Shown here in pieces: positions 12,159-64,000 of a DNA stretch of 64,000 nucleotides. Made by a program: the position numbers and the translations under genes. Under the pieces are notes generated by a model. That model was not told the DNA's origin. It worked only from the letters and a program-made list of their open reading frames with translations, and did no database searches. Source of the DNA: Chiloscyllium plagiosum (Eukaryota); assembly GCF_004010195.1 (NCBI RefSeq), contig NC_057713.1, positions 136,128,911 to 136,192,910 on the forward strand. The letters run 5' to 3'. How positions within the stretch are numbered: the first letter of the stretch is position 1; each line of letters opens with the position of its first letter.

Positions 12159-12172
12159 ACCAGACTACATTG

Positions 12173-16194: not shown

Positions 16195-16236
16195 TTAGTT
16201 CTTATGTCCTTATTGATATCCATATAACATAAATTT

Positions 16237-18020: not shown

Positions 18021-18024
18021 TGAC

Positions 18025-25389: not shown

Positions 25390-28020
25390 ATACTAAATTC
25401 CCTCCAACTAAAATATATTCCAGAGAGGAAGACAGATTGTAAGAGGGAGAAAAAAATCTATGGTGAAGCAAAGATGTTAAAGAAATAAAAAGACAAAAAA
25501 ATTAAGGCATTCCATATTGCAAAGCTAAGTGCAGGCTGAAGGATTGGGAAACTTTTAAAGGTTGAAAGGTTACTAAAAAAACTAATAAAAAGCACAAAGA
25601 TTAATTAGAAAGATGACTAGCATAAAAATATAAAAATGGATAGCAAAAGCATTTACAAAAGGGAAGAGTAGTTGATATGAACGTTGGTCATTTGGAGGAT
25701 GAGACGGTCGAATTAATAATGGGGAACACAAATGGCAGGTGACACTAAATCAATACTTTGCCTCAATTTTCATGGAGGAGGACTCAAACCATCCAAATAG
25801 TAACAGATCATGCAGAGATTATAGAAAAGGAGAAACTTAAAGCAATTACCATTCTTAGGAAAAACGTGCTGAGCGAACTGTTGGCAAGTTCACAGGGCTT
25901 TATGACCTACATCCTAGAGTTTTAAAGGAAGTGGCAGCAAAGATAGGGTCGCATCGGTTATAATTCTCCAAAATTCCTAAATTATGGAAAGGATCCAGTG
26001 AATTGGAAAATGCTAATGGAATTCCCTTATTCAATAAAGGCAGGAGACTAAGTAGGAAACTAAGGACGCATTAGTTTAACTGGTATTATTGGAAAATTGA
26101 GAGAATCCATTAAGGAAGTAGCAACAAATATTAGGCAAGTCAAAGTGCAATCCAGAGTCAGTTTGGTTTAAGAGTAAATCATGTTCGACTAATTTATTAT
26201 AGAACAAAGTTTTCAAAGATAGCCAAGTTGATAATGAGGGTCCTGCAGCTGGAGAAAATGAGGACTGCAGATGCTGGAGATTAGAGCTTAAAAATGTATT
26301 GCTGGAAAAGCGCAGGTCAGGCAGCAAAGGAGAATCGACGTTTCGGCATTTCCTGAGAAGGGCTTATGCCCGAAACGTCGATTCTCCTTCTCCTTTGATA
26401 CTGCCTGACCTGCTGCGCTTTTCCAGCAACACATTTTTAAGTCCTGCAGATGGAGTAGAGATGGAATTCCAAAAGGCATTTGATAAGGTGTCACACAAAA
26501 GATTAATACATCATTCAAGATGGCTTGGGGTTAAGGGTAATAATACATTAGCATGAATAGAGGATTAGCTAACTAATAGAAACTAGTGTTTTCTGGTTGA
26601 TATTCTGTAAATAGTGGACCCAACAGGGTTTGAACATAAAACATAGAACACTACAGCGCAGTACAGGCCTTTTGGCCCTCAATGGTTTCACAGGGTGGTG
26701 CAACAATCTGAAATTCATCTAACCTACACTATTGCATTCTCGTCCATATGCCTATCCAATAACCATTTAAATGCCCTTCAAGTTGGCGAGCCGACAACTG
26801 TTACAGGCAGTGCATTCCACGCCCCTACTACTCAGAGTAAAGAAACTACCTCTGACATCTGTCCTATATCTATTACCCCTCAATTTAAAGCTATGTCTCC
26901 TCTAGCTAGCCATCGCCATCAGAGGAAAAAGGCTCTCGCTGTCCACCCCATCTAATCCTCTGGATTATCTTATATGTCTCAATTAAGTCACCTCTCAACC
27001 TTCTTCTCTCTAACGAAAACAATCTCAAGTCCCTCAACCTTTCCTTGTAAGACTTTCCCTTCTTACCGGACAACCACCTTGTAAATCTCTTCTGTACCCT
27101 TTTGAAAGCTTCCCCATCCTTCCTATAATGCAGTGAGTAGAACCATATACAATACTCCAAGCGTGGCCGCACCAGAGTTTTGTATAGTTACATGACGACC
27201 TCATGGTTCCAAAACTCGATCCCTCCAGTAATAAAAGCTAACACACCGTATGACTTCTTAACAGCCCTATCAACCTGGGTGGCAACTTTGAGGGATCTAT
27301 ATACATGGACACTGAGATCTCTCTGCTCATCTACACTACCACAAATCTTACCAATCGCCCTGCAATCTTCATTACTGTTACTTGGTCCTTGGATTCCAAC
27401 TATTTACTATTTTTCAACAATCTAGATTAAAGACTTGGTTGCAGTAGAAACATGTACTACAGGCAAATTTGCAGATGATACTAAAATAAGTGGGAAAGTA
27501 AGCTGCAATGAAAACTAAGAAATTTATGAACAGATATGGATAACAGACAGGCAAAAATTTGGTAGATGGAGTTTAACATGATTATCTATTTCAGTTGGAC
27601 TGACTAATAAGGAGGTTGAGTAGACTGGACCTGGTAAATAAAAGAATTGAGACAGTCTTATTGAAACATGTAATATTCTTAGTGGACTTGATAAGGTAGA
27701 TGTGGAAAGGTAGTTTTCCCCTTATGGATGTTTTGGACTAGATGTCATCATCGCAGAATAAGGGGTCACCCATTTAAGACAGAGACAGCGAGGAATTTTG
27801 TCTCTCAAAGAATCAAGAATCTGTGGGATACTTTACTGAAGAGATAAAGACAGGGTCATTTTAATATATTCAAGGCTGAGGCAGATATTTAATCAGAAAG
27901 GGAATCGAGGGTTATGCAGAAAAGACAGGAAAGTGGAGTTGAGGATTGTCAGATTAGCCATGATCGCATTGAGCGGCAGAGCAGACTTGATGGGACGAAC
28001 GGCCTACATTGGCTCCTCTT
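25390..28020 (+). mobile_element. Older CR1 LINE, interrupted by a hammerhead mini-element (26254-26440) and an antisense CR1 (26632-27383)
   Basis: LHPRVLKEVA, EFQKAFDKVSHKRL, KFADDTK, 3'UTR. The antisense insert encodes MRPRLEYCIWFYSLHYRKD..RRRLRGDLIETYKII. Confidence 0.85.
26254..26440. mobile_element. Family A palindromic hammerhead mini-element
   Basis: Inverted arms around CTGA-GAAGGGCTTATGCCCGAAACGTCGATTC (core one nt short). 14-bp TSD GTCCTGCAG(C/A)TGGA at 26240 and 26441. Confidence 0.85.
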
Positions 28021-28249
28021 TGATTGATGAGCATAGTTTCATTAGGTACAATCAAGAAGTTTGCTAAATCCTGGGAAAGACTTAAAAACATGGAAAGAAG
28101 AAATGGAGCTTGATTAATTTACTACCACAACAACTATGCCAGATCTAAATTAGATTTGCAAATCAATTATCTGAAAAGTTTTCTTTTCAAAACAAAACTA
28201 TTTATTTGTATGGGACAAATGCATTAAGAAAACATTCAAAGCTCCATAG

Positions 28250-30950
28250 TTGTTAACTCCATACTCCATCATGCTGAACATCAACTGGAAATATCAGGAG
28301 TATCGCATGGACACGGCAAGCATTAGAGGTGGGGTGCCTTCAATGTCCATCACCAAATGTGGCTGGGAACATCATTACTGCTCAGTGGGCTAAGTTTTAA
28401 ACGTCATAACTCTGGACTGAGCTGAGAACAGGCAGAGACGGAAAGGGGGAAGAACTTACTTGACCTTGCCCTTACCTTGACCAGGTGTTGTAAATGCCTC
28501 TGACCGTATTGGTAGGCATGAGGATCGCTCAGCCCTGGTGAAAATAAAGCCCCGTCTTCACATCAAGAGTACGCTCCATTGTATTGTGAGATATTACCGC
28601 TATGTTAAATGGGATAAACTTCCAACAGATCTAGCAATTTAAAACTCAACATCCACAAGGCACTGTGGGCTGTAAGCAACAACAGAATGGTATTCAATCA
28701 CAATATGAAAGCCCACTGCCAAAGTCCATCATTACCATCAAGCCAAGAGATCAATCCTGGTTTGAAGACAACTGCAAGAGGGTGTGCCAGGAGCAGCATC
28801 AGCATGAGGAAAAGATCATCCTGGTAAAACTACAGCTAATGACTATTTGCACATAAAATAGCAGAAGTTGCATATAAAACAAAGGATGCAGCACAGGCTA
28901 GTCAGAGCCAGGTGACCCAGCAATTAACAGATCAAATTTAAGCTTTGCAGTCTTGCCACACCCAGCAGGAAATGGATGTGAATGAGTAGATAACTAACTG
29001 GAGGGAACAGCTCCACAAATATCCCCATTCTCAACAGTGGGGCCACCAGTACATCTGTGCAAAAGACAAGTCTGTGGTATTAGCATCCATCTCCAGTCAG
29101 AAATGCAGGGCAGATGATCCATGCTAGCTCCTTGTTGAATTCCTCAACACCACAGATTCCAGCCTCCAGGCAATTTGATTCACTCCACATGATATGAAGA
29201 AATAATTGGAGCCACTGAATACTGAAACATTGCAAGTGCGGGCAATATTCAGGTACGAGTACTGAAGAGGTGCACCAGGGTTTGCTGCACTCCTACCCAA
29301 ACTGCTAGAGCACCACCTCAACAGTCACCTATTCAGCAGTGTGAAAATCTGCCCAAATTATATCAGAAAGCAGGATAAATCCAACCTAACCAATTACTGC
29401 ACCAGACTACTCTTGATCGTCAAAGGCAAAAAGCAGTCAGAGCTATCAAGCATACATTTCAAAATAAACTGCTCACTGATACTCTTGCCAGGGCCACTCA
29501 GCTCCTGATCTCATTGCAACCTTGGTCCCAACATAGACAACAAAAGGTGAATTTCACAGACAAGTTAGAGACTGCCTTTGACATTAAGGCAGCATTTGGC
29601 AAACAATGGCACCAAGAAACACTGGAGTCAATGGGAAACTGGGAAAGAGGCTCCTAACCAGCCCAAAGGAAGTTAGTTGTGGTGTCGTCCCACTCCCCCT
29701 TCAGTCAAAGCAAAACACTCAGAGACAAAGCATAGTTTTACCTCCTTCATCTTTATTCCACGCCCTGGAGGGAGAGAGAATGATTGCCCAGGTGCAAAGG
29801 GACATGAGTTCACGGTCTTCTCTCGAACAACGGTTTCTCAATGAACTATGTAGTCATTTTACAGGAAGGAGCATCCAGAAAAGGCAAGATACATATTAAT
29901 TGGGTGACAATCAATGAGTATCAATAGCAGAGACCAAGCCCTTTACTGTTACACAATGAATGTTCTTAACCTTGTAAACTGGATTCATACAATGGATAAT
30001 TTTCCCCTTGTTAGCTGACCTTGCATACTGAATGCTTCCAATATTGTTAAATGGCTCTACATAATGACTGATTTTCCACCTTGTGAACCCATTACCCTTA
30101 CCTGCAGCACCCCATTGTTAATTGTAAGTTCTTATCTGAGTCATGCTCAACTGAACCTCTCGTTCCACAAAACTCAACTCTTTCCCTCCCTGCTTATGCC
30201 TTATAGACTCTCTCAGTGGTTGTTGCAAGTTCATAATTTCAGTCCCAACATATCACTTCATCAAAAAGGTCAGAAATTGAGATGTTGACAGATGATTGCA
30301 TATTGTTCAGCATTATTTGCAACTCAAACTGAAGCTGGCTGTGTCCATCTATAACAAACATTGGAAAACATCCAAACTTGGCCTGATAAGTAGCAAGTAA
30401 CATTCACACCACATCAAGTGCCAAAGAATCATCTTCAGCAAGAGAAAATCTAACCGTTTCACATTGACAGTCAATCACATTACCATCATGGAATCCCCAA
30501 TGTTAATATCAGGGGGATGGGTTCATTTACCAGAAACTAAACAAGCTACATTAAGTATTACTACAAAAGCATGTCAATATAGGAGTTCTGTGACTAATAC
30601 ATCACTGCCTAACCAAAGTTCATCACTATGTACAAGCCGTATGACAGGAGTGAGATAGAATACCTTCTACCCGTCTCAACAAGCACTGTTTTAACTCCAC
30701 TCGAGAAATTCAACACCACACAAAAAAGAAATCAGTCCATTTGATTGGTACCCAACTCATTACTTTCAATGTTCACTCTCACCTCCACTGCACAGTGAAT
30801 ACCACCTAAAAGATGTATTGCATCAACTGACCCAGGCTCCTTCAACACCTTCTGAACCCTTTAATACCCAGAACGAAAAGGTTACATGGGAGCAACATCA
30901 CCTGCAAGTTCCCCTTCAAACCATAGACAACACTAATTTGAAAGTAAATC
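28250..30950 (+). mobile_element. Ancient CR1-clade LINE (endonuclease-RT remnants) interrupted by a solo LTR
   Basis: GAFNVHH, ITIKPRDQSWFEDNC, DKSNLTNY, DIKAAF, DDCILFS. Confidence 0.75.
29683..30215 (-). mobile_element. Solo LTR, copy 2
   Basis: TG...CA termini with a perfect 4-bp TSD GTGG (29679-29682, 30216-30219); AATAAA on the minus strand. Confidence 0.85.
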
Positions 30951-30959
30951 ACTTTTTCT

Positions 30960-31690: not shown

Positions 31691-31694
31691 AAAA

Positions 31695-32010
31695 ACTAAA
31701 AGAAATGTAGATCCTGGGAAGTTGAAATAAAAACAAATTGCTGGAGAAACTCAGGAAATCTGGCAGCATCTGTGGAGAGAAATCAGAGTTAACATTTCAG
31801 GTCCAGTGATCTTAGTAGCTAAGAAAAGGTTGGTATTAATGCAGGGGGAAGAGGGGGGGGGGGGAGGGGGGGGGGGGGGAAAGCACTAAATGACATGTGG
31901 AGATGGGCTCAAAGAGACAGAAAAACAGTTGGACAAAAGGAATGGATGAATGGTCAGTCTGGGAGAATGAATAGCTGCTAAGGGGAACTATTAACAGCTG
32001 ACAAAGGGCT
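31695..32010 (-). mobile_element. PLE 3'UTR fragment (homologous to 12440-12780) with an expanded G-tract
   Basis: tgctggagaaactcagg..tggcagcatctgtggagagaaatcagagttaacatttcaggtc. G12-A-G14 at 31853-31879. Confidence 0.65.
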
Positions 32011-32109
32011 ACTCATGCAATTTCAAAAACTTTCACTGGTGTCCACAAGTCATAACTCAAAATTTAAGACAAATGAAGCTGCAGGATTACACATAAAGCC
32101 AGTTAGAAA

Positions 32110-33660: not shown

Positions 33661-36300
33661 TCTCATTTATCCACATTATACTTAATCTGCCATGCACTGG
33701 CCTGCACTCTCACTGCCTAAATCACAATGAAATCCTCTTTCACTTAACCTCAAACTTTGTGTCATCAGCAAACTTGGGAAATATTGCATTTAGCTCCATC
33801 ATCTAAAATCATGAATGTATATTGTGACTAGCTGGGGTCCAACCACTGATTCTTGCAATCTGTAATCACTGGACACCATTCAGAAAAAGATCCACTTATT
33901 CCTATTCGGTTTCCTGTCTACCACCCAGTTCTCTATCCATGTCAGTATGCTACAGCCAATCCTATGTACTTCAATTTTACATACTTATCTGTTAAGCGTG
34001 ACCTTATCAAGAGCCTTCTGAAATTCCAATCAAACCACAACCACTGGTTCCCCCATATCAACCTACTAGTCACATCCTTAAAAAGTTAAAATTTATCAAG
34101 CATGGCTTCCCTTTCTTAAATCCTAGTTGACACTGTCCAATCCTGCCTGTTTTCCAAATGCACTGCTTTGAAATCTTTTATAATGGACTCTAGCATTTCC
34201 CCCCACCACTAATGGCAGGGCAACTGGTCTATAATGCCCTACTTTCTCCCCACCTTATAAATGAATGGAGGTAGAGTTACATTATCTGCCCTCTAAATCC
34301 ATAGGAATTGTTCCAGTGTCTAGTGTCTTGAAAAATCATCCACTATTTCTAGGTGACTCACAATCAATACTCACAAGCAATTCAACAATCCATTTAATTG
34401 ATTTGCCTTCTTTGCTCCACACTGTAACAATCCCCATTTATGACTGTAAAGGATGTACATTTGCCTTCAGCAAATCTTTTTCTCTTCACGTACCTACAGA
34501 ACCTTTTACAATCAGTTTGAAAGTTCCCTGCAAGTTCCCTTCTGTATTCTACTTAGTCCCTTTTCATCAATCTTTGTACTTCCTTCCTGAAATCTAGACT
34601 GCTCCCAATCCTTAGGTCTACAGCTATTTTTTGGGTCAATTTGTATGACTCTTCCTTGGATCCAATGCTATCCCAAATTTCCCTTGTAAGCGATGGTCAG
34701 GTCACCTTTCCAGTCGTATTTTTGCAGCAAACAAGGATGAACAATTATTGTAGTTCTCCCTTGTGTTCTTTAAGCATATGACACTGCCTCTCCGCCACCG
34801 TCCCTTTAAGTCACGATTCCCAATTTATCACAGCCAGTTCATGCCTCTTACCACGGCGTCTCCTCCATGCACTTAAACTCTATGCCTCAGCTTACAAAGG
34901 CAAATAACCCACATGCTTTCTTAACCATAAACCTTCTTAATCTAAGGCTATCCTCCTCATTATTTACCACCCCAGCAATTTTTGTATCATTTGTGATCTT
35001 CCTGATCAATCTTCCTACATTCAAGTCCAAATTGTTCATATATACCACAGAGAGCAAAGAGGTCAATGACCCCTGTGGGACTCCACTGGACATCGGCTTC
35101 CAGTCAATAACACCCCTCGACCATCATCCTCTGCTTCCTGCCATTCAGCTGAATCTGGATCCAAACTTCCTTGGATCCCATGGGCTTTTACCTTCACTAT
35201 CAGTCTCTCATGCAGGATCTTATCGAAAGCCTTACTGAAATCCAAAGTAGATTATGTTGAATGCATTGCCCTCACCTATACATCTGATTACCTCTGAAAA
35301 ATTCTGTTAAGTTGGTCAAATGTTACTTTCCCTTAATAAAACCATGCTGACTGTTTTTGACTAATCCCTACCTCTCCAAGGACTAATTCTGTCTCTCCAA
35401 ACTGCCTCCAACAGTTTACTACCACAGAACTTAGACTGACTGGCCTGTAGTTTCTTGGTTTATCCCTTACTTCCATTCTGGTATACATTGGCTGTCCTCA
35501 GCCTTCTGGCATCTCTCCTGTGGCCAGATCAGAATTGAAAATTATTGCCAACACTCTTGCTATTTCTTCCCTTGCCTTATTCAACAACCTGGAATACATT
35601 TAATCTGAATTTTTAAAAACCACCAAAAGTACTGCAGATGCTGGAAAACAGAAACAAAAACAGAAATTGTTGGAAAAGCTCAGCAGGTCTAGCAGAATCT
35701 GTGGCGAGAAATCAGAGTTAATGTTTTAGGTCCAGTGATTCTGCTTCAGAACAGTTCTGTAAGGTTAGCTCTGCTTTTATTAACCCTTCAATATACTTTA
35801 AAATAAACTAGGATTTTCCTTAATGTTTTCCTGCAAGTATTCTTTCATGCTCCCTTTTTGCTTTTTTTTTAAAAAAGTTTCTCCTTGCACATTTTGTGGG
35901 GCCTTTGCTGTCTTGAGCCTTCAATGTTTGCCAAATCTTCCTTGTTCTCTTCATCCAATTTGGTATATCACATGATATCCAGGTTCATTGGATTTGTTGA
36001 TCCCACTTTTTTCCTTTACTGAAACACGTTGGCCTTATACTCTCCCCATTTCCTTCTTGAATGCATCTCACAGATTTACTTGCAAGTATCTGCTCCCAAT
36101 TCACTGTGGCCAAATTATATCTGATTTTATTGGCCTTCCCCTAATTGAGAACATTCATTTCAAACCCACTCTTGCCTTTTCCCTAACAATTGTAAATCTA
36201 TGGAGTTACGATCAGTGCCTGCAAAATGCTCACCCACCAATACTTAAACCACTTCCTCGGCTTCATTACCGAAAGTTAAATCCAGGTCTGCCCTCTCATC
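33660..36300 (-). mobile_element. Stacked degenerate CR1 LINE fragments
   Basis: DFSKAFDKILHERL, SGVPQGS, NDTKIAGVV and a second KFADDTK-like motif. Confidence 0.75.
35625..35765 (-). mobile_element. PLE-tail mini-element with decayed hammerhead and the start of an inverted arm
   Basis: ctgcagatgctgga..ggaaaagctcagcaggtc..gagttaatgttttaggtccagtgattctgcttcagaac|agttctgtaag. Confidence 0.65.
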
Positions 36301-44652: not shown

Positions 44653-44778
44653 TCCTGAAGAAGGGCTAATGCCTGAAACGTCGATTCTCCTGTTCCCTAG
44701 ATGCTGCCTGACCTGCTGTGCTTTTCCAGCAACACATTTCCATCTCTGATCTCCAACATCTGCAGACCTCACTTTCTC
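44653..44778 (+). mobile_element. Family A mini-element, monomeric, starting at an intact hammerhead core
   Basis: TC-CTGAAGA-A-GGGC(TAAT)GCCT-GAAAC-GTC-GA followed by the family A tail ending cactttctc. Confidence 0.85.
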
Positions 44779-46112
44779 AACAAGGTGAGTACTAATGTAG
44801 TCAAGTTTTAAACTTAACATTCAAATTATTAATGGGGACCTTATCACATCAGGAAATTTTAAAGAGGTAGACTCCAAACTGCTTTTTCAAAAATAAAGAC
44901 CTGCAACAATTATAACCAATAATGGGAGTTTGATGACCACATAACTGGAGGCTCACAGTTTGGCAGTCTCTCAGCTGTAACACAGGTTTCATGGCTAGAG
45001 ATGCAGATGACTACAAGAATCTACAATTTACAACAATAAATTGGTCAGTTTTGGCAACACCAACTGATCTTACTAGTAGAAAGACGGAGTTGAAACAAAA
45101 AATGCCCCGGCCTTCAAGTACAGCACAATGTTCAGGAGAACGGAAACACAAATAATCCAGGCCGCTTTTATACTCAGGATTTCAAAATCTATATTTTAAA
45201 AATTAACCTGCTTCCACTAAAAGCATGGTCTTTATTCAAAGTGCAAACGTAGAAACCTAGACACTTTTTTTTCCTCCAATTGCTGCTCCTGCTTCCTTGC
45301 CCACCACAACAAACGCCAATTATCAACCATTCACTTCGGATTGTATTGCTTCTTGAATAATGCATAATGTGTATGACTATGTGTATGACTTGCAGTTTAA
45401 CTTTGTTCAGGTTCTCTCAGGACTTAAGTAGATTCAGGAACAGCTTTGTGTAACAAAACAGTGTTCCTCCATAGACTTTTAGATCGTGCAACTACAATAA
45501 CTTGCATTTAATGCAGCATCCTTAACGGAGAAAAATGTCCCAAGGCACTTCATACTGATTATATGAAGAAGGTATGTAGAAGGATGACCAAACAGCTTGG
45601 TCAAAGATGTGGATTTTAAAGGCTGATTAGGAATTGGAGATAATGAGAGCTGTCATGAAGGAATTCCACAGCATAACATCTTAAATGGACAAAAGGTAGA
45701 TATCACTGATTGGGTAGGTGCCCAAGAGTTCACAATCAACTTAACTGAAAACATGAAGGTTGCTTCTTTAGGGGTGGAAAAGGTTAGTGATTGGTACTAG
45801 AAAAGAGGTAGGGAATGCCAAAATTGCAAAGAAATTCAGCTTTAAATGGGAATTTTTACATTTGGGATCAAGCTGAACACTTTGGGTCATAAATCGCATG
45901 AAGCATTAAGAAGTTGAAGGTTTCAAAACAAAAATTAAAATAAAATTCTCCCTATGAGATACGTCTTACACAGACTCAAGTTCCTTTTCTTTTCCTCTTG
46001 CTGAGGGGAATGGTCAAGGCACCATAGTCCTACTGGACCATGGGGCTGCTCTTCCATTAGAGAGAGATAACTGGTGGTGGTTTAACCTGAGGGCCACCAT
46101 ACCTCAGGTGAG

Positions 46113-46242
46113 ATGCCGGTGTTGGATTGGGGTGTACAAAGTTAAAAATCACAACCCTAGGTTATAGTCCAACAGGTTTAATTGGAAGAACACTAGCTTT
46201 CGGAGCGACACTCCTTCATCAGGTGATAGTGGAGGGCTCGAT
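46113..46242 (-). mobile_element. Family B hammerhead mini-element (130 bp)
   Basis: Perfect 11-bp TSD CCTCAGGTGAG (46102-46112, 46243-46253); homologous to 55612-55758. Confidence 0.85.
46191..46225 (-). ncRNA. Minimal type-I hammerhead ribozyme motif (family B), on the CHD7 sense strand
   Basis: CAC-CUGAUGA-A-GGAG(UGUCG)CUCC-GAAAG-CUA-GUG: stem I CAC/GUG, all core boxes intact, palindromic AGCU at stem III. Confidence 0.82.
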
Positions 46243-46539
46243 CCTCAGGTGAGGAGAGACATTGAGAGGGGAGAGCACTTCATGGTAACCTCAGGTGGCA
46301 TGGGAATTGAACCCACGCCATGGCATCACTCTACTGAAAACCTGCCATCCGGCCAACTGAGCTGGGTTGCAGTTGAGGCAAGATACATTTAAAACATCAC
46401 CTCGAACATATCACAAAATTGTTACAGCACAGGAGATAGCCAATAGGTCCATCTTGATCTGCACCAGCTCACAAAACAAGTAAATAATTAGTTGCCACAT
46501 TTCCATCTTCTCCTCCAAACCCTGTGCATTCCTTTTTCA

Positions 46540-48525
46540 GATAGAACACAGAACATTACAGTGCAGTGCAGTACAGGCACTTCGGCCCTCGATGTTGCAT
46601 CGACCTGTGGAATCAATCTGAAGCCCATCTCCCCTGCATTATTCCGTTTTCATCCATATGTTTATCCAATGAAAATTTAGATGCCCTTAAAGGTGGCGAG
46701 TTTACTACTGTCGCAGGCAGTGCATTTCCATGCCCCTACTACTGAGTAAAGAAACTACTTCTGACATCTGTCCTAATATCTATACATCTATCACCCCTCA
46801 ATTTAAAGCTATGCCCCCTCGTGCTAGCCATCACCATATGAGGCAAAAGGCTCCCACTGTCCACTTTATCTAACCCTCTGATTATCTTATATATCTCAAT
46901 TAAGTCACCTCTCAACCTTCTATGAAAACAGCCTTAAGTCCTTCAGCCTTTCCTCACAAGACCTTCCCTCCACACCAGGCAACACCTTAGTAAATCTCCT
47001 CTGAACCCTTTCCAAAGCTTCCACATTCTTTGCATAATGCTATGACCAGAACTGTACACAATACTCCAAGTGCGGCCGCACCAGAGTTTTGTACAGCTGC
47101 AGCATGACCTCATGGCTCCAAAACTTAATCCCTCTACCAATAAAAAGCGAACACACCGTATGCCTTCGTAACAACCCTATCAACCTGGGTGGCAACTTTC
47201 AGCAATCTATGTACATGGACACAGATCCATCAGCTCATCCACACTACCAAGAATCATACCATTAGCCCAGCACACTATTCCTGTTGCTCCTTCCAAAGTG
47301 AATCACCTCATACTTTTCCACATTAATCTCCATTTGCCACCTCTTAGCCCAGTTCTGCAGCTTATCTATGTCCTCTGCAACCCACAATATCCTTCGGCAC
47401 TATCCACAACTTTACCAACCTTAGTGTCATCTGCAAATTTACTAACTCATCCTTCTATGCCCTCATCTAGGTCACTTATAAAAATGACAAATAGCAGTGG
47501 CCCCAAAACAGATCCTTGCAGTACACCACTAGTAACGAAGCTCCAAGATGAATATTTCCCATCAACCACTGCCCTTTGTCTTCTTTCAGCTAGCCAATTT
47601 CTAATCCAAATCACCCTCAATCCCATGCCTCATATTTTGTTCAATAGCCTACCATGGGGAACTTTATCAAATGGCTTATTGAAAGCCATACACACCACAA
47701 TCACTTAACCCTCATCCATCTGTTTGGTCACCATCTCAAAGAACTCAATAAGGTTTGTGAGGCACGACCTACCCCGCACAAAACCTTGTGGACTATCCCT
47801 AATCAACTTACTCCTCTCCAGATGATAATACATCCTCTCTCTCTTACTTTACCCACAATTGAAGTAAGGCTCACTGGTCTATAATTACCAGGGTTGTCTC
47901 TACAGTAAGGCTCACTGGTCTATAATTACCAGGGTTGTCTCTACTCCCTTCTTGAACAAGGGAAACACCATTTTCTATCTTCCAGTCTTCTGGCACTATT
48001 CCGGTATACAATGACGACAAAGATCAAAGCCAAAGGCTCTGCAATCTCATCTCTGGCTTCTCAAAGAATCCTAGAATAAATCCCATCTGGCCCAGGGGAC
48101 TTACCTACTTTTACATTTCAGAATTGCTAACTCTTCCTTGTGAACCTTAATCCTGTCTAATCTAGTAGCCTCTATTTCATTGTCTTTTTCTAGTATGAAA
48201 CTGACAAAAAATATTAATTTACCGCTTCCCCTACCTCCTTTGACTCCATGCACAACTTCCCACTACAATCCTTGATTGACGAGAGAAAGATTAGGGTCAT
48301 TCTTTTATTCCTGACATGAATAGAAAGCTTTAGGGTTTTCCTTGATCCTACCTGCCAACTTATTTCCCCTCCTGGTTCTTCTTAGCTCTCTCTTTAGGTC
48401 TTTCCCGGCTAACTTGTAACTCTGAAGCACACTAACAGTCTTCACATCTCATCCTAACGTAAGCTTCTTCCTCCACTTGACAAAAAATTCAATTTCTTTA
48501 GTGACCCATGGCTCCCTCACTCGAC
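46540..48525 (-). mobile_element. CR1 LINE ORF2 3' half
   Basis: Reverse-complement RT ([17 protein letters not shown]) and 3'UTR; same subfamily as 8610-10330. Confidence 0.92.
47863..47944. repeat. Perfect 41-bp tandem duplication inside CR1
   Basis: AGTAAGGCTCACTGGTCTATAATTACCAGGGTTGTCTCTAC x2. Confidence 0.9.
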
Positions 48526-49282
48526 TGTTATCCCATTCCGCCCTCATTCAAAGTAAAACACTCAGAGAGACAGTATGGTTTTACATCCTTCTTCTTTATC
48601 CCGGGCCCCGGAGGGAGAGAGAACAATCGCCCATGTGCACAGACACGAGTTCACGGTCTTCTCAGGAAGAGTTTCTCAATGACCTATACAAGCATTTTAC
48701 AAGGAGGAGCACCCAGATAAGGCAGCATATTGATTGGGTGATCGTTACAATCAGTGCGCAACAGTAAAGATTAAGCCATCTGCTGTTACACAATGAATGT
48801 TCTTCATCTTGTTAACTGAACTCATACAATGGATAGTTTTCACCTTGTTAATTGGATGTTACATACTGAATGCTATCTCATCTTGTTAAAGGCTCTAAAT
48901 AATGAATGCTTTTGCACCGTGTTAACCCATTACCCTTGCCTGCAGCACCCCATTAGTTAACTAAGTTCTTATCTGATCTTGAGTAGAGTGTGTTGCTGGA
49001 AAAGCACAGCAGGTCAGACAGCATCTGAGGAGGAAAATGAACATTTTGAGCCAGAGCCCTTCCTGATTAAGGGCTCCAGCCCGAAGCATTGATTTTCCTG
49101 CTCCTCGGATGCTGCCTGACCTGCTGTGCTTTTCCAGCAAAGCACACTCAACTCTGATCTCCAGCATCTGCAGACCTCACTGTCTCCTTATCTGATCCGA
49201 GTCATGCTCAGCTGAACATCTTGTTTCACAAAATTCAAACTTAACACTTTCCCTGCCTGCTTATATCTTATGCACTTTCTCA
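48526..49282 (-). mobile_element. Solo LTR, copy 3, interrupted by a family A element
   Basis: Homologous to copies 1 and 2, TG...CA termini; no TSD evident. Confidence 0.75.
48979..49186. mobile_element. Family A palindromic mini-element with decayed hammerheads
   Basis: Inverted arms around cCTGATTAAGGGCTCCAGCCCGAAGCATTGA. Perfect 11-bp TSD CTTATCTGATC (48968-48978, 49187-49197). Confidence 0.85.
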
Positions 49283-53445: not shown

Positions 53446-54824
53446 TATAATTTAAAACCACAACTATTACAGATGATCATATATTGGAATTTTTACATAG
53501 AGTAAATGCTGAAATTATGGTGATAACCTACAACCCTAGCAGTAAGCTGAAAAGGAGCAAGTGTTTCATCATCCCCACACTGAACATCAAGTACCTGAAA
53601 CATATGACTCCAAAAATTCAATGTGATCAGGTGTTACAATTGTGTTTTAAAGAAAGGAAGCCAACTTTTCTCAAAACATCAATTATTTTTGCCACTTCTT
53701 TCAATTCCATCAGATGAGGTAAGTAGAATCTCATTTGAACCTTCATTGCTCAGACCTTTGAGTATATGAGTTGGAATATCATGCTGAGGTTGAACAGGAT
53801 ATTGGTGAAGCCTTGTGTAGAGTACGGTATCCAATTCTGGTCACCCTGTTATATGAAGATTATTAAACTGGAGACAGTTCAGAAAAGATTTACCAGGATG
53901 TTGCAGAATGGAGGGTTTGAGTTATAAAAATAGGCCAAATAGGCTGGGAATTCTTTCACTGGCATGGAGGAGGTTGAGGGGTGGCTCTTATTAAAGGTTT
54001 TTAAAATCATGAAGGGCAGAGATAAGGTGAATGGCAAAGGTCTTTTCCCGAAGGTAGGGGAGTTCAAAACTAAAAGGGGCATCTTTTTAAGGTAAGCAGA
54101 GAACGATTTAAAAAGGAAACAAGGGGCAACTTTTTACGCAAAGTACTTAGTATGTGAAATGAACTGCCAGAGGAAGTGGTGGATGCAGGTACAGTTACAA
54201 CGTGTAAAAGACATTTGGATAAGTCCATGATAGGAAAAGTTTGGAGGAAAAGGACCAAATGCAGGCAGGTGAGACCAATTTAGTTTGGGAACATGGTTGG
54301 CATGGACTAGTGGGGCCAAAGGGTCTGTTTCCATGCTGTGGGACTCTCGACTTTGAGCGATCTTCCTTTTTAAATTGACTGCCCCAGCAAACACAGCTTA
54401 CCTTCCAGGGTTGTAAGACCTTTTATAGCCTTATTGATTCTCAAACTTGTATGCAGAGAGCTTGGATACAGGAGTGTACCTGAATATCTATGATAGATTC
54501 CTGTTCATGCCACAGCCTGGGTATGGAAAGTTCAAATGAGATTCTACTTTCCTCATCTGATGGAATTGAAGCAAGTGGCAAAAATGATAGAAATCTTGAG
54601 AAAAATTGGCTTCCTTTCTTTAAAACACAATTGTTAGACCTGAGCACATTGATATTTTGGTGCCATATGTTTCAGGTACTTGATGTTCAGTGTGGCAATG
54701 ATCAAACACTCGCTCCTTTTCAGCCTACTAGGGTTGTAGACTAAATGCTGAAATTATGGTGATAACCTAAGCAAAAACTCCAATATATGATTGTCTGTAA
54801 ATACTGTTGTGGTTTTAAATTATA
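53446..54824. repeat. ~310-bp inverted duplication (arms ~53446-53756 and ~54515-54824) enclosing a CR1 3' fragment (~53757-54350)
   Basis: For example acaattgtgttttaaagaaaggaagccaa versus ttggcttcctttctttaaaacacaattgt, and caattccatcagatgagg versus cctcatctgatggaattg. Confidence 0.9.
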
Positions 54825-55221
54825 ACTGGTCAAATCTAGTTGGACGAAGTGACAATCTTGCATGGCAAAGTGCAGTTCTTCGCACAACATGCATACGCTT
54901 TAAAATGTTTGGGCTTTATGCCAATCAAGATTATTGATTTTCAGCCTCTGACAAGAATGAGGGAAAATATCAAGCAATCTGACCTTGGGAGGCTTAATAC
55001 AATCTCCCTGCTTCCCCAATTCCAATCCAATACCACATGTAAGTGCCTGCAATCAGTGACTAACTCCTAATTTATAGTAGTCCTAGCAGTGTCACATCAT
55101 GTAAATGTACTCATTTCACAAAGACAAAATTAAAATACACAATGATTTCATAAAGCAAACACTTTCATAAAATGGAAGTTCACTATGGTTTCAAAATATG
55201 CAGGTATAGAACAACTACACT

Positions 55222-55437
55222 GGGGAGAAAGTGAGGTCTGCAGATGCTGGAGATCAGAGCTGAAAATGTGTTGCTGGAAAAGCGCAGCAGGTCAGGCAGC
55301 ATCCAGGGAACAGGAGAATCGACGTTTCGGGCATAAGCCCTTCTTCAGGAATCCTGAAGTAGGGCTTATGCCCGAAACGTCGATTCTCCTGTTCCCTGGA
55401 TGCTGCCTGACCTGCTGCGCTTTTCCAGCAACACATT
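55222..55437. mobile_element. Family A palindromic double-hammerhead mini-element (least decayed copy)
   Basis: 87-bp arms 55264-55350 and 55352-55438 with one mismatch. Perfect 15-bp TSD TAGAACAACTACACT (55207-55221, 55438-55452). Confidence 0.92.
55316..55353 (-). ncRNA. Minimal type-I hammerhead ribozyme motif (family A); the mirror copy on + at 55349-55386 has A9->U
   Basis: UC-CUGAAGA-A-GGGC(UUAU)GCCC-GAAAC-GUC-GA. The + copy has a perfect stem I GAAUC/GAUUC but reads CUGAAGU. Confidence 0.82.
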
Positions 55438-55523
55438 TAGAACAACTACACTAACCATCAACCAACTTAAGGTAAATTGGTCAAGCTCATTTACTCCTGG
55501 TTGAAATGACATACATGGTTTTT

Positions 55524-55758
55524 AAAAAATCATACAACACCAGGTTATAGTCCAACAGGTTTAATTGGGAGCACACTAGCTTTTGGAGCGCCGTTTCTTC
55601 ATCAGGTGGTTATCCTGATGAAGGAGCGATGCTCCGAAAGCTAGTGTGCTCCCAATAAAATCTGTTGGACTATAACCTGGTGTTGTGAGATTTTTAAACT
55701 GGTGTTGTATGATTTTTAACTTTGTCCTCCCAGTCCAATACCGGCACCTCCACATCAT
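55524..55758. mobile_element. Family B palindromic hammerhead mini-element
   Basis: Arms ~55524-55606 and ~55614-55696. The + core CTGATGA-A-GGAGC(GAT)GCTCC-GAAAG-CTA at 55615-55643 is intact; the minus core is mutated. Confidence 0.88.
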
Positions 55759-56209: not shown

Positions 56210-56850
56210 ATTAAGTGGAGTCAAAAGGTAGACAGGGCAGTGAAGGAGGCTTTTGATACACTGGCCTTCATCAGCTAGGGCACTGAATACAGAAGTTGGG
56301 AAGTTATGTGCAGTTGTACAGGACATTGATGAGGCTATACTTAGATCGCGTTCAGTTTTGGTCCCCTTGCTATAGAAATTATGGTATTAAACTGGAAAAG
56401 AGTGCAGAAAAAAGGAAAAGGATGCTGTCAAGGGTCTGAGTTATAGGGAAAGGTTGGGCAAGCCAAGACTTTTCCTTTAGAGCATTGGAAACGGAGGGGG
56501 AACTTAAAGACATGTACAAGATCATGAGAGGCATGGATAGGGTGAATACACAGACTTTTTTCCGAAGGTTTGGTATTCGAGGACTAGAGGGCATCAGTTT
56601 AAAGTTAGAGGGGAAAGAATAAATGGCAACTTATGGGGCAACCTTTTAAGAGGGTGGTATGCATGAGCTGCCAGTGGAAGTGATTGAGGCGGGTACATTA
56701 ACAACATTTAAAAGGCATTTGGACAAATATATGGATAGGAAAGGTTTAGAAGGATATGGGCCAAATGCAGGCAAATGGTGTTAGTTTGGATAGATATATT
56801 GGTTGGCATGGGTCAGTTTGGCCGAAGGGCCTGTCTGTGCTGTAGGACTG
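56210..56850 (+). mobile_element. CR1 LINE 3' fragment
   Basis: Same subfamily as 24245-24870: VQFWSPCYR.., DMYKIMRGMDRVN, 3'UTR. Confidence 0.88.
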
Positions 56851-58979
56851 ATTAATTGCTCCACAAGTGAACACATTCAGACATGAAGGGCCAAATGGTC
56901 TCCTCCTATGCTGTAACCAATTATGTATACCAATTCTTAAAAATCCATTGTGAACTAACAATTTTTGCCTAATTGTTTTGTAGTGCATTCAAAAAAGGGC
57001 TGTAATATCATTAACGATCATGGATGAACACACTTTAATTTAATTATTGATAAAATATAAAATAAATGTAATAGTCTTTAGCAGTACAACGTTTGCCTAA
57101 TATAACCTTTAAATTGCACATTCCAAATATGCCAGCCCCTTGATCCTAATGAGGATCCTGCTCAAGAACAGACCTGAAGGCAAAAATTACAGCTGACCAC
57201 AAGAACTTGCATTTCTTAGCACTTCTCAATTCAAAGAAATTTCAAGGGTTGCAAATGGGAAGATAACTGGTAACAATGTAAAAAGAATGAACAAAGGTAA
57301 AGTAGCAAATCTAAAGAAACCATCAGAAAATATATCTTCCCAAACAAGAAGGGAGCTGACAAAGCATAAAAAGCTAAGCAGAGAATCAGACAAGAGAATA
57401 GTGACAGAAAAAGTTAAAGAAAGTAAGAACTTGATTAAAAAAAACTGAACACCTGAAGTGCAGTCTTGTTTTGAAATGCAAGGAAGCTCAACATTAATGC
57501 ATAATGTGCTAATAAAGCTGGAGGAGATCACCTAGACAAGCTTGGTGAGACCGTGGAAGCACAGGAAATTAGAAACAAAAGTTTATAACATGAGCGTGCG
57601 TTGAAAGGTATTGTAGTGAAGCTTGGTAGGACAGGGGTGAGAAACACAGGTTATTTGTGCAGGCACACCCTGCATTTTTCTGGTTCAAAGCAAACTATTG
57701 CAAAGGAAGCAAATCTGTTGTCATTATCTGACTCCAGATGCAACTCCAGAGTGACTCTTAAAGGCCTTCTGAAATGTCTTTGCAGTTGCCAAGGACATAA
57801 CCAGCAAAAACCATACAGTAGGCAGATTCTGAAAAAAAAAGGATATACTGTGCCTGATCAACCTTGCAATGTTCTCATTAACATTGGGAAAATGTGCCAA
57901 AAGTAACAGCCTGACAAAACCATACTGTCAGAAACATACCATGAAGCCAATGTCCCCAAATGACTCTTTCACCATGCCTGGCTATGTCCTATTCCATCAA
58001 AGAGAGACACCTCAGAGGTGATATCACAAGAACTAATGGCCCTGGGAACCCACAACATTGACTCTGGACCACAGATATTGCAAACATAGAGAAGGAAATG
58101 CCATGTAAATGATCACCTATCACCCTCCTGCAGCTTATAAATCAGTATTCCTCTGCGTGAAGCACCACTGAGAAAAAGCACAGGAGTAGCAAGATGACAG
58201 AATTTCAAAACTGGACATTTGAGAAATCAAAAGAATAACTCTATCCGACCAAAGTATGTCACCACAGAGCTGGCATATCTCACTTTATTACCATCAAACC
58301 AAGAGATCAACCCTGGCTCAATGAACAGTGCAGCACATGCCAGTAACACTAGACATGCTTAAAAATGAGGCATCAACTGGAGCTACAGAACAGTCTATAA
58401 CATGCTAAAAATTGAAACAGCAGACTATAAACAGAACTAAGCAATCCCACAGGCAGCAGATTATACTGAAAGCCCTGCAGTGCTGCCACAACCAGTTATG
58501 AATGGAGGAGAATTTAAAAGTTAATCGAAGGTGGCAGAGAGGAGATAGGGAATCAAGTGAAAGGTGTGTAAAGGAAAAAGAGAAAGAAATAAAACTTCCA
58601 GGCTTATCAGCAAACAGGAAGGGGGACAAATACACAAAAAGGGAATAAATCATTTATATGCTTTTTCCCCCAGAGGACACCCAAAACACATTTAAGCTGG
58701 CAGATTACTTTTGAAATGTGCTTTTAGGCACACTCACCTGTGGATTTTGGAAGGAAGTGTTGGCAAGCAGTAACGAGAAAGGTACAAAGTAATCAATGTG
58801 ATTCGTATGCGTTGGGTGAGGCACAAAAGCCCTTTGTACATGACCTTTTACACTGATTTGATTTGATTTGACAAGACAGTACCCACTTTTATCAGTATCT
58901 GAATGATTGCATTTTCGATTTTGTTAAAAACACAATGCCAGTGGGAAGTAAACACTCTTGTTACACTCTCGTCCTTGGC

Positions 58980-59320: not shown

Positions 59321-61094
59321 CAATTCAAGATTCTAGGCACTTCAAAAAAAGTCTATATATTGGATGTGTTTACCACAAATCATGACTGACAACCTTTAAG
59401 AGAGACAAAACTAGCATAACAGCAATGCTAACAGATTTAATTATGACACAATTGCAATGAACAAAAGCAGCCAGAATTATGCAAAGGTTCCAATAACTCA
59501 AAGGAGAAGATAGAATAAAATAAATAAATATGAACCATTCATGGGAGTTGGGTGCCACTGGAAGGGTCAGTATTTGTTTCCTATCCTCAACTGCCCTTTA
59601 ATGGAGCAGGTCTCTACACCCTTTCAGAGTGCAGAGAAGAGTGAAGTGCATTTCTATGGGTCTAGAGTCACATACTAGCTAGACTGGTTCAGGTTGGCAG
59701 ATTTCCTTCACAAAAAGGTCATTTCACTGATGTGGTTCACTCTTAATTGGCCTTACAAACAGCCCAGAGAGCCACTCTGTACAAGAACAACTGGTGATGG
59801 GCAACAAATGCCAACCTTGCCAGTGACACCCACATCCCAGGTAAAAATACAATAGCAGAAACATTAACCATTTAGCCCATTTCTGACCCACTTTGATGCA
59901 AGTGATGCATTAAAAGGGAAAGCTAATTATGCTTGAGAAAATTTGATGCTATACTTTAAAAGTACAAGATTAAAAAAGATTTCTAGTCAGAAGTATAGGG
60001 CCACAAATCATCATCTCGAAGGAATGAATTTGAATTTTATATTAACAGGAAAATCTCAATAATTCAGTGTATAATAAAAGTGTCAAACTATGCCAACTAG
60101 GAAGCCCAGCTTCATTCCCTTTCTCTACAGTTAGATGTCAAGTTGGTCCTCAGATCTTATATTTCAGTATTCCAACAATTGCTGAGGGATATAGGAAAAG
60201 CAAGAAAATGCAACTAGGGATTCTGCTAATTGCTGTACAGTGACCCCTCCTGGAAGCAAAGTGAGCGACAGATCAGGTTACCAGGCTTTCACTATCAAAC
60301 ACAAGCAGTCATTGCATGCGCTTACACATGAATAACAGACCAGAGCTTCAATGAAGGCAAATTCACTACTGAAATAGAACTCAGCATGTAGACATCTTTC
60401 GATATTTTGTTTCTATGAGATTTGGATGGCACTGTTTAGTATGTTTTTGAAACTAAGTAAATTATGTAATTTTAGAGCATTTAAATTTCCCTGCCCTGAA
60501 GGGCATTAACCACCTAGTTGAGATTTTGTGACAATTCACCAGCTTTCATAGTGTCAGGCCACAAATTTATTAAATCTATTAAATTCAGTTCTACAACTTG
60601 CTATAGTGCGGTCTGAACTCAACCTGTACAATGCTCAAGATTCTCGGACTGAACCCAGACAAGCTTTGTTTGTGGACACTGAGGCATGAACGCACATGAA
60701 CATTCAGTTCTTAACAGCACAGGTGTGAGAGGGGAAAAAAGGATATCAGCAGCCAGGGTTAGCAAGTCTGATCACTACCTTTAAGTACTGTGCTCACAAG
60801 GTTCTGCAAACTGCAAAAACAGGAACAGGCCTAGTTATAGTGCTGCGATGAGCCATCATTATTGTTTAACCATGACACTGAATGACAGATAAATTGACAA
60901 ATTCCATGGAACCACAACTGACAGAGGTTGAAAAACAGAGATTGGAGTAATTGTGTCACAGGAAGGCAACTAAAATTCGCACTCCAGCTCAAATCACCAC
61001 CTTTATCAAAAATATACCAGAAGGAAGAGTAATGGTAATTGAAAGGAAATAGTGACCCCAAATTGGCTATTACTAGTTCATATATAGGAAGAAA

Positions 61095-61282
61095 GCAACA
61101 ATACATTTGGATACAATTACAACAACTAAAAGGCATCTGCGTGGGTATATGAATAGGAAGGGTTGAGGGGGATTTGGGCCAAATGCTGGCAAATGGGACT
61201 AGACTAATTTAGACTATCTGGTCAGCATGGACAAGTTGGACTGATGGTTCGGTTTCCGTGATGTACATCTCTATGACCCTAT
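61095..61282 (+). mobile_element. CR1 LINE 3'UTR
   Basis: aaaaggcatctg..gggccaaatgctggcaaatgggactag..tacatctctatgac. Confidence 0.8.
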
Positions 61283-62467
61283 GCCTTGAATCCTCCCCCT
61301 ACCCAGCCCTTCATAGGAGCATTCCAAGACAAAGCTTGGAGATAAAAGGCAAATATTAGGACAGAAGGCCAAATGTTTGGTTTTAAGGGATATTTTAAGA
61401 GGACAGAGGGATTTAAGGGAGGCAATTCCAGAATTCAGGATGCAGAGGGAGCCAGAATTAGATTAATGCAAATCACTGGTGAGGCTAAAGGAGACTAGAT
61501 AGACAGACATAGTGAGACAGCACACAAGAGATGCCCACAGAGAAACTGGACAAAAGGGTGAGCATTGGAAAACTGGGGTGTTGCTTGATTGGGAACAAAG
61601 TACTTACAGCTCTGGACTCCATAATTATTAGTATTAATTATCTATAGGACAAAGTGTGTAGCATCTACAAGATATATTGTAGCAATTTATTAAGGCTCCT
61701 TTGACAGCATCTTGCAAACCTGCTGCTTCTACCAATTACAAGGACAGCAGGTACATAGGATCACCACCTATAAAGTTCCAATCCCAGCCATATTGTCATT
61801 GTTGCGGCACCAAATCACAGAATTCCTGTCTTAATTGCACTGGGTGTCTAGCTGCATTCACCTCCATCCCCATAGACCACAGCTCTTCAAAGGTGGAGGC
61901 TCACCATTAACTTTTCAAGGTGAAATTGGCAGGCTGGACTAACACCTTTTAGTGCCACACTATTGCCAGTATGCATTGCTGGTAGAGGGGGTGAATGTTG
62001 CTTTATATTGTAAATTAGTAGGAATATAGGAATTAGTACTATCAATAATCCCAGGATCTAGGACTCCAATTCACTGGCTCACAATAACCAACAGCCTCAA
62101 TTTTAAAGTGTTCATCAGCACCCTGTGAACAAACAATATCTGTTTGTACACTTAAAGATAAAGCTTAATTTTGACTCATAGTACTATCAGCTGCATTCCC
62201 ATTCAAACAAAGACAAAGCAAATGAAGTACACATGTAACATCAAGATGATCAAACAAAATAACTTCCACTGTGACAATAAAGTTGTTTGAATTATATTTC
62301 ATAATAAAATACAGAATTCATTTGCAATATTAAATAGATCATGAACAGGAATGCTTAAGCATCAAGAAATTCTGAATATCAAATTGTACAATTACCCATA
62401 AAATATCTTGACTTTTATAATTTAAGTTCAGAATTCCAGTCTCCTAAAAGGCTCAAAGCCTATCATG

Positions 62468-62619
62468 GAGGAGAAAATGAGGACTGCAGATGCTGGAGGT
62501 CAGAGTCTAAGAGTATGACGTGGGAAAAGCACAGCGGGTCAGGCAATATCCGAGGAGCAGGAAGAGGATGAGGTGGCAGCTGCCCGACTTGCTGTGCTTT
62601 TCCAGCACCACACACTCGA
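62468..62619. mobile_element. Family A palindromic mini-element with the central hammerhead region deleted
   Basis: gagaaaatgaggactgcagatgctgga..ggaaaagcacagc.ggtcaggca / tgcccgacttgctgtgcttttcc. 16-bp TSD CTCAAAG(CC/TT)TATCATG at 62452 and 62620. Confidence 0.8.
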
Positions 62620-64000
62620 CTCAAAGTTTATCATGACAGCACAAAAAAAAACTGGCTAATCTTTCGATTCCAGGTCATTGGCCGAGATCCCTGATGAAAG
62701 CTCACAACACCAACAGGATCTAGGTTAGTATTGTATATCCAAGTGCTGAGCTAACTGCCCCTCGTCTGGGCTCCAATGTAAAAAGCATTTGACTGAGACA
62801 TACAAACTATAGAGATTCCGCATCATACTCCAAGCATGAATACAACAACTTTTAGGAGTGGGAAATAGTGAATAAGGAACGGTCATTAGAAACTTTTCAA
62901 AGGGAAAGGCAGAGCAGAAAGAACATTGCATGGATTGTCGAACTTTTCACTGCAGAAAATGCAAGCAAGTCTTGTGAAAAATCTCCATTATAAAATGTAA
63001 CTATTTATACTGCCACCTTCAGGGTAGTAAATCCAATGAGCACACAGATACAGAAAAAGATGAAATTTCACTAAAAGAATTGCTCCACTCCAGAAAAATG
63101 AGGGGGTGGGGGAAAGAGTGTGATGATTAGCACAGGTTAGCCAGAAAGCCCTGACTTGTGGTAACAAGGCTTCCATTTTTCCCAACTATGTATCGTAGAG
63201 CAAGCCAACTTGAATGTTTCTTATGTGCAGACACACAAGCGCCCAGGCTCAGATGTTCAGTGGGAGTTCAGCTAGTACTTCAACCAGGTCAAATCTAAGC
63301 TATAGTTAGGAAACAAAAGTCAAAAATTCTTATTCAGGAATATTAACTTTGTTGGAAACATAGTTTTGGACACTACCTAGCAACAGGATTGAGCTTGGCT
63401 ACATTGCTATTTCTCTCCCCTCCCTCAGTCAAATAGCCTGCCACTGTCAAGGTTCATATAGGAAAATATTAGAAGACAAACACCACCTATGGAGGTATAT
63501 CTCTGCAAACAAGTCCTAGTAAAGGACTAAATTAAGTATTAGGAAAGTAGTAATAAATTTCCGGTTTTAGATTTTTTAAAATAGTACCTCACTTTCCCCC
63601 AAATACTCATCTAATATCCCAATATACCATATATTTTACCAGATATACAAAATATAAATGACTAAGCAAGTGCATTACACTGTTCTTACACATGTACAAT
63701 TACAATTTGATATAAAGCATACACTATATTCTACTTTAATTTTAACAGAATCATAAATCTAACTCCAGTATAGCCAAAGAGTTACTTTTGAATTATTCCT
63801 AAAGACAACTTACACTTTTCTAACAACTTGAATGAAATAAAATGTCCCATAGTAAAACAAAAAAGAATTAAAGGTATTATCCAAAGGCAAGTACAAAAAT
63901 AATGCTTAAAATGTTTTGTCCATGTTTTTTGGGGAATGGCAGAATGAGATCAAGAGAAATGTCTGAACGGACGTAAAATTAGAACAAGACAATTTCTATG

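Follow-up and report, generated by a model that had tools for sequence, protein, structure and literature searches.

Short hammerhead-bearing repeats of Chiloscyllium plagiosum are terminal modules of two Penelope-like elements and probably copies of an mRNA leader

A 64,000-nucleotide stretch of Chiloscyllium plagiosum DNA (NC_057713.1, positions 136,128,911 to 136,192,910; the whole stretch is called the window) contains short repeats of two unrelated families, A and B, in which a minimal hammerhead motif is followed by a tail of about 100 nt and which are often folded back head to head. What are these repeats, and why do so many of them begin close to the ribozyme? We found that each is the terminal module, a pseudo-long terminal repeat (pLTR) plus tail, of a distinct Penelope-like element (PLE) with a reverse transcriptase (RT) and a GIY-YIG endonuclease (EN), and not a separate non-autonomous family. 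The short copies are probably dead-end cDNAs of an mRNA leader of roughly 125 nt, made by RT running off a capped RNA end. Throughout, module positions are counted from the C of the CUGA box, taken as 0, and negative numbers lie upstream; an arm is a single copy of the module, and a tailed arm extends to about +115 to +124.

Terminal modules of two Penelope-like elements

A random sample of 994 kb (the window plus blocks chosen irrespective of repeats; 39.7 kb of N, 954 kb N-free) contained 137 A arms and 51 B arms, i.e., roughly 140 and 50 per Mb. If this sample is representative, the genome would hold roughly half a million A arms and two hundred thousand B arms; the exact 50-base A tail had 8,819 genomic matches. 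Minimal hammerhead-like motifs numbered 61 in the N-free part of the sample versus 0-2 in five doublet shuffles, and thus the motif is not due to chance. The motifs have the core boxes, stem II, the extra base at 9/10.1 and the palindromic 15.2-16.2 of minimal hammerheads, and in all DNA analysed the ANNU tetramer was palindromic in 235 of 283 motifs (ACGT in 144, AGCT in 90). Judged from sequence, stem I is short (3 bp in B; 2 bp, a mismatch and 1 further pair in A). Stem II of family A is nearly invariant, with each pair intact in 55-60 of 60 arms and one or two double changes per pair; the family B covariation sample comprised just 11 arms. A search of Rfam returned no hammerhead family, only hairpin matches to microRNA precursors below the gathering score, and the structure obtained by folding one arm alone was not unusual (z -0.43).

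Close genomic copies frequently extend upstream into common sequence, which in family A leads to a GIY-YIG open reading frame (ORF). The A module is located about 155 nt behind the ORF stop, at the same place in 25 of 30 loci fetched with the A GIY-YIG protein, and RT (RVT_1, E 4e-9), GIY-YIG and module are all on one strand in L316. The B module lies about 620 nt behind an ORF with RT and GIY-YIG, which were found on the same element in L061 and L151; in the B-type L148, RVT_1 was detected at E 2.4e-10. A YIDD motif is present in the RT of module-bearing elements. The family B ORF had 205 homologues among proteins of 672-2,000 aa, with RVT_1 in most of the matches listed. PF01541 was detected in P0001 at 23.4 bits (cut-off 22.6); the B GIY-YIG piece had no Pfam match, but it contains a YLIRC..YIGET motif, can be aligned to that of A and has homologues with PF01541. 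The A and B ORFs are 28% identical and both have a CX2-5CxxC linker between RT and EN, and by this linker both families appear to be of the Neptune type. Such a linker is given as a mark of the Neptune and Nematis clades (PMC8557442).

The module also precedes the ORF. A near full-length B copy from a random block (L163) consists of an inverted arm, a pLTR, an ATG at the tail end, the ORF and a 3' pLTR, and the A tail continues to an ATG and the ORF start in L130, L239, L284, L291, L297, L305 and L310. Therefore, the hammerhead and the following 100 nt form the 3' end of the element and the mRNA leader alike. A pLTR on both sides of the ORF is the published PLE layout (PMC3846280, PMC2377424). 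The original prediction, made on this stretch from its letters alone, had reported no ORF; this is true of the short copies, but both modules are parts of ORF-bearing elements. Its proposals of a PLE derivation and of minimal type-I hammerheads were supported, as was its view that the repeats are not miniature inverted-repeat transposable elements (MITEs). An origin as MITEs of a DNA transposon would account for the palindromic shape only, and target-site duplications (TSDs) of 10-16 bp, asymmetric ends and continuity with RT and GIY-YIG ORFs make it a negligible alternative.

Several other features were observed in the longer copies. Family A copies are nested in family B copies in L023 and L259, and one lies within a B ORF in L157. 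In L015 (- strand, upstream part of the first 600 bases), an open frame that looks like an olfactomedin-domain exon is located about 450 bp from an internally deleted family A element. Three apparent long open frames (1,123-1,467 aa) proved to be assembly gaps and not ORFs.

Fold-backs and their junctions

Repeats were present at every place named in the original prediction, and two more A-related tail fragments, absent from it, were detected at 12682-12764 and 14598-14645. The named copies are as follows; in the TSD test, none of 300 random pairs of places attained a score of 11.

12060..12158, + strand: family A single arm, older subfamily, beginning 3' of the hammerhead and without the core; TSD 12046-12059 / 12159-12172 (14 bp)
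26255..26440, no single strand: family A fold-back, tailed arm on the - strand from +13, tail-less arm on the + strand from -3, the latter with one base missing in CUGAnGA; TSD 26240-26254 / 26441-26455 (15 bp, 1 mismatch)
31738..31771, - strand: older A-related tail fragment; no TSD found
35632..35700, - strand: older A-related tail fragment; no TSD found
44653..44778, + strand: single family A arm that begins at -2 and is tailed, with the minimal hammerhead core intact at 44655; TSD not found
46113..46242, - strand: family B single arm, about -23 to tail, i.e., beyond the inferred start site, intact core at 46222; TSD 46102-46112 / 46243-46253 (11 bp)
48979..49186, no single strand: family A fold-back, tailed + arm from -3, other arm from +5, core mutated; TSD 48968-48978 / 49187-49197 (11 bp)
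55222..55437, no single strand: family A fold-back, in which the - arm begins at A(-4), is tailed and keeps an intact core (55348), and the + arm begins at -2 and has no tail; TSD 55207-55221 / 55438-55452 (15 bp)
55522..55748, no single strand: family B fold-back, in which the - arm begins at -5 and has no tail, and the + arm begins at -1, is tailed and contains a short internal duplication and, at 55615, an intact core; TSD not found
62468..62619, no single strand: family A fold-back, both arms beginning 3' of the hammerhead (+33 and about +45); TSD 62452-62467 / 62620-62635 (16 bp, 2 mismatches; score 10)

The expected fold-back shape was thus found in five of eight named copies (26255, 48979, 55222, 62468 and 55522), the other three (12060, 44653 and 46113) being single arms. 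A hammerhead had been ascribed to both families; an intact CUGAnGA-stem-GAAA is present in four arms (44655+, 55348-, 55615+ and 46222-), but the core is absent from the copies at 12060 and 62468. TSDs flank six of the eight (14, 15, 11, 15, 16 and 11 bp, two with mismatches) and were found for none of the places named as 44653, 55524, 31695 and 35625.

In line with the original prediction, fold-backs form the majority of young tailed copies, at 25 of 30 loci in family B and 19 of 30 in family A (selected via the tail only and counted by eye). They do not in the random sample, in which arms were paired head to head at a gap of <=60 bp: 43 pairs (27 A, 16 B) were found versus 102 unpaired arms (83 A, 19 B). 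TSDs of 10-16 bp were found in 21 of the 27 A pairs, and 12 of them were 15 bp long. Exactly one arm was tailed in 39 of the 43 pairs, and the loop-II variant agreed between the two arms of 26 out of 27 A fold-backs, against a mean of 10.6 and a maximum of 17 after shuffling.

A fixed symmetry centre had also been claimed. The centres are clustered but differ between copies: the 27 A fold-backs have 25 distinct strings, and each of the 13 B fold-backs has a string of its own (38 in 40 overall). Multi-kb copies fold back too: in L061, L111, L114 and L125 the centre is located hundreds of bases or more upstream. In addition, 17 of 39 one-tailed fold-backs (7/26 A, 10/13 B) are not nested: the tail-less arm begins 4 nt or more upstream of its partner, and each arm holds private sequence. 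Such arms therefore do not come from one self-folding cDNA, whereas two priming events can produce them. Fold-back junctions are made anew in each insertion.

These data bear on the idea, put forward in the original prediction, of self-propagating, non-autonomous palindromic ribozyme retroelements of a retrozyme-like kind whose mirror arm arises by hairpin priming or a template switch at the ribozyme. The dominance of short copies is in its favor, as is the recurrence of a few centres, one string occurring in 3 of 27 fold-backs and one A junction in 16 of 100 among the matches listed (genome-wide junctions were counted by eye from exact patterns with foreign sequence upstream, 100 of the matches being listed per pattern). 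Moreover, snap-back synthesis is known for R2 (PMC11371274), and self-priming has been proposed for PLE palindromes (PMC3846280). However, the recurrent junction spans different loop-II subfamilies and outer ends and is explained by 1-2-nt microhomology, and the distinct centres, non-nested arms and kb-long fold-backs all speak against this idea. Together with the modules being ends of RT and GIY-YIG elements and with the lack of tandem arrays in the copies examined, they largely refute it, and we consider it very improbable.

The 3' ends of arms are bimodal, about +84-92 and +124 in family A and +80-91 and +114-123 in family B. These two classes match the two internal RT start sites and the two-strand nicking of the anole element (PMC11167929). 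Copies examined were singles or head-to-head pairs, with no retrozyme-style head-to-tail arrays among them, and no genome-wide tandem search was made; two-unit partial tandems with ORF-start sequence were only occasional among these copies. In L291, L305, L239 and L130, a leader with about 100-140 nt of ORF-side sequence is followed head to tail by a second leader, and in L291 and L305 both leaders begin near -4. Such pairs may be template jumps after run-off and a possible route to partial tandems.

The upstream limit of arms and an extra G

To characterize 5' ends, young arms (208 A, 102 B) were selected irrespective of where they begin. The ends of 112 A and 44 B arms fell within -12..+6, and 21 A and 11 B arms extended beyond this pile-up in the upstream direction. 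Single arms located directly between TSDs have the same 5' limit, and thus the pile-up is no alignment artefact. Starts at the predicted cut site (+28) account for only 5 of the 208 A arms; the cut site was rejected as the origin of the 5' ends on this ground, which is also a further point against self-propagating ribozyme elements. In family B, the starts at +31..34 may be due to a length variant of 2 nt relative to the reference.

In arms that begin at one particular A, the preceding base is mostly G, whereas the element itself has C. Among fetched loci, G preceded A(-8) of family B in 9/9 cases versus 7/25 at three control positions, and A(-4) of family A in 14/21 versus 6/68 at four control positions. 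Genome-wide, G was found at A(-8) in 89 of 100 among the matches listed (1,986 total), against 18 of 100 among those listed (1,515 total) one base further in, and at A(-4) in 62 of 100 among the matches listed (5,641 total); about 25% would be expected by base composition. When 27 rows in which the junction base could be derived from the inverted arm were removed, G remained at A(-4) in 46 of 73 among the matches listed. In many rows the extra G is not templated by the partner arm, and it occurs on both arms in L033 and L221. A splice acceptor was rejected as its source, since in the genome the A is not preceded by AG.

In L1 insertions with a complete 5' end, an extra G of this kind is the signature of the cap (PMC11702581). 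We conclude firmly that the A following the extra G is where the template RNA physically begins, and this A is likely to be a capped RNA polymerase II (Pol II) start. TATAAA occurs 30 or 32 nt before A(-8) in 40 of 44 long B copies, and TTTTAT occurs 32 nt before A(-4) in all 65 long A copies. The sequence at the inferred family A start, TCATTCC, agrees with an initiator consensus. The clustering near the ribozyme seen in the original prediction is therefore real, but the pile-up is 4-8 nt 5' of CUGA with an extra G; it most likely marks an RNA 5' end and not a fold at the ribozyme.

Alternatively, the template might be a longer RNA on which a hammerhead, folded or bound by protein, makes RT stall at its 5' edge and add a non-templated base, with no transcription start involved. 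The pile-up does coincide with the 5' strand of stem I, and non-templated additions by RT are common. However, the G excess is limited to one purine per family (in B, 89 versus 18 per 100 one base away, among the matches listed), this purine is 30-32 nt behind an AT-rich box in both families, and at that point RT would already be past the entire ribozyme. Stalling is thus quite improbable, although slightly less so than the self-propagating elements discussed above.

It is also conceivable that the run-off is the same and the templates are mostly short Pol II transcripts of solo pLTRs that kept their promoter and are mobilised in trans, in the manner of short interspersed elements (SINEs). The arms extending beyond the pile-up, about 10% of young arms in each family, reach far enough upstream to include the box, and short copies vastly outnumber ORF-bearing ones. 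Trans-mobilisation of pLTRs has been published (PMC3846280), and a derivation of non-LTR retrozymes from pLTRs has been proposed (bioRxiv 10.64898/2026.07.22.740005). On the other hand, tails often continue into ORF-side sequence, with 1,045 exact matches to a tail extended by 8 bases, and they reach the ORF start in 8 fetched copies. Many templates therefore extended into the element body, which favors full-length mRNA over solo-pLTR transcripts. In addition, the minimal RNA of the anole PLE requires sequence well beyond the RT start sites (PMC11167929). We regard solo-pLTR transcripts as unlikely, but as the strongest of the alternatives.

Several observations weigh against leader run-off from a capped start. 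No intact full-length ORF was recovered, assembly gaps being frequent in long copies, and the genome-wide control position is that of family B only. One raw-read poly(A) single-cell run with coverage showed no pile of RNA starts; it did show a depth step and 143 loose ends at -4, but with mixed flanks, as expected from passively transcribed genomic copies. Many arms begin 1-14 nt inside the inferred start, for which trimming at joining has to be assumed. Loop-II concordance in B fold-backs (10/13 versus a shuffled mean of 9.3) is uninformative. A third PLE in the window, which we assume to be Poseidon-type by its GIY-YIG, kept its own upstream sequence over -31..-17 in 96 of 100 among the matches listed and had no pile-up; thus, the effect is not general, or the start lies elsewhere in that element. 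Finally, the promoter of D. virilis Penelope is TATA-less and internal (PMC2377424), and the TATA reading is therefore positional only.

The 3' end of this third PLE occupies 3350-3900 of the window (- strand), with a GIY-YIG remnant at 3718-3879 and TATAAA 54 nt before a minimal hammerhead at 3473. A 20-base piece of it has 19,243 exact genomic matches, often as opposite-strand pairs. The window also contains a young tRNA-like SINE family of about 300 bp, with copies 90-97% identical (4329-4638, 5906-6221, 9901-10206, 10585-10894, 14198-14517 and 16236-16546), which presumably resembles the HE1 SINE of sharks. Many fragments of another abundant repeat, which look like 3' ends of CR1/L2-type long interspersed elements, are located at 7665-9256, 17436-18503, 24307-24837, 26704-27320, 46614-47229, 53541-54729 (including the inverted arms 53541-53753 / 54517-54729) and 56497-56914.

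Proposed leader run-off and known systems

We consider the following route to be the probable origin of the short copies. Pol II would start at A(-4) in family A or A(-8) in family B, 30-32 nt after the AT-rich or TATA box, and the hammerhead would open the mRNA. By analogy with in vitro work on the anole PLE, the PLE protein would nick both target strands about 12-15 nt apart, giving the TSD, and cDNA would be primed at two internal sites, about +85-92 and +120-124, giving the two 3'-end classes. RT primed in the 5' leader would meet the RNA end within 130 nt and gain a single additional base by copying the cap (G when read on the sense strand), whereas RT primed in the 3' copy of the module would yield longer, variably truncated arms. 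One cDNA would leave a single arm; two cDNAs, joined head to head via 0-3-nt microhomology or filler, would leave a fold-back in which just one of the two arms is tailed. The ribozyme would be carried along uncut, with no role in setting the fold point. On balance, we lean slightly towards a more specific statement, namely that in these two putative Neptune-type families the commonest insertion is a complete copy of the capped leader, and that one ribonucleoprotein primes twice, once per nicked strand, and runs off the cap. If so, the source of short inverted pLTRs and of solo PLE hammerheads would be explained, the promoter would be mapped from DNA alone, and the predicted ribozyme would be placed about 32-37 nt downstream of the cap, at a position where cleavage would remove the cap from the mRNA and not make a template.

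An inverted copy, a tail, a long TSD and a minimal hammerhead are all published PLE features (PMC8557442, PMC3846280, PMC4209133). Insertion units of canonical EN-containing PLEs have, as here, a pLTR, an adjoining inverted 5'-truncated copy and a 30-40-bp tail (PMC8557442, PMC3846280). Unlike in those units, most young insertions here consist of nothing but the module (85-240 bp); their 5' limit is sharp, and they carry the extra G. The minimal hammerheads of metazoan PLEs (Cervera and De la Pena 2014, PMC4209133) share the CUGAnGA core, the extra base before stem II, G10.1-C11.1 and the palindromic 15.2-16.2 with the motifs described here, and are likewise mostly single copies, with some opposite-strand pairs 100-700 bp apart. 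That paper, which names no shark in the available part of its main text, considered solo motifs to be probably truncated PLEs and proposed cleavage and circular templates, whereas copies here mostly begin upstream of an uncut ribozyme.

The closest experimental system is the anole Poseidon element PAc (Frangieh et al. 2024, PMC11167929). As in our families, two internal RT starts define the tail, both strands are cut and extended, the hammerhead adjoins the ORF start and cleavage is not needed; uncleaved RNA was the main substrate in vitro. In PAc the ATG is within the ribozyme, whereas in our families it follows at a distance of about 160 nt in A and about 120 nt in B. The ORFs described here, unlike that of PAc, have the Neptune/Nematis-type linker. 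The PAc main text describes no genomic run-off products with an extra G. Non-LTR retrozymes (PMC7229834; bioRxiv 10.64898/2026.07.22.740005), which the accessible part of the preprint places in one chondrichthyan genome, are similarly small, non-coding and PLE-related, with a type-I hammerhead and a long TSD. However, they are head-to-tail arrays with at least two ribozymes and a circular RNA, as far as described in these sources, and the copies here are monomers or head-to-head pairs with unique centres. Full-length L1 insertions (PMC11702581) share the extra G at a complete 5' end, a second priming event at the opposite end of the target and a discrete TSD. L1 primes at poly(A) and inverts adjacent RNA segments, whereas both arms here copy one segment, and therefore the product is a palindrome. 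No report of a cap-derived G or leader run-off in PLEs, or of these families, was found in the open literature; subscription papers, supplements, Dfam and Repbase were outside this search.

There is nothing unusual about the elements themselves, which belong to a known class, and for annotation the repeats should be filed as ends of two PLE families and not as SINEs, MITEs or retrozymes. The new part is the extra-G run-off signature, a modest and testable mechanistic addition. In the available text of PMC2377424, PMC3846280, PMC8557442 and PMC11167929, the origin of inverted and tandem terminal repeats of PLEs and the role of the hammerhead are stated as open. Here, thousands of young junctions provide a base-exact mark of the template 5' end. 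They argue for copying of uncut, likely capped RNA, and it follows clearly from this reading of the template end what the in vitro PLE assay and cap analysis of gene expression should show.

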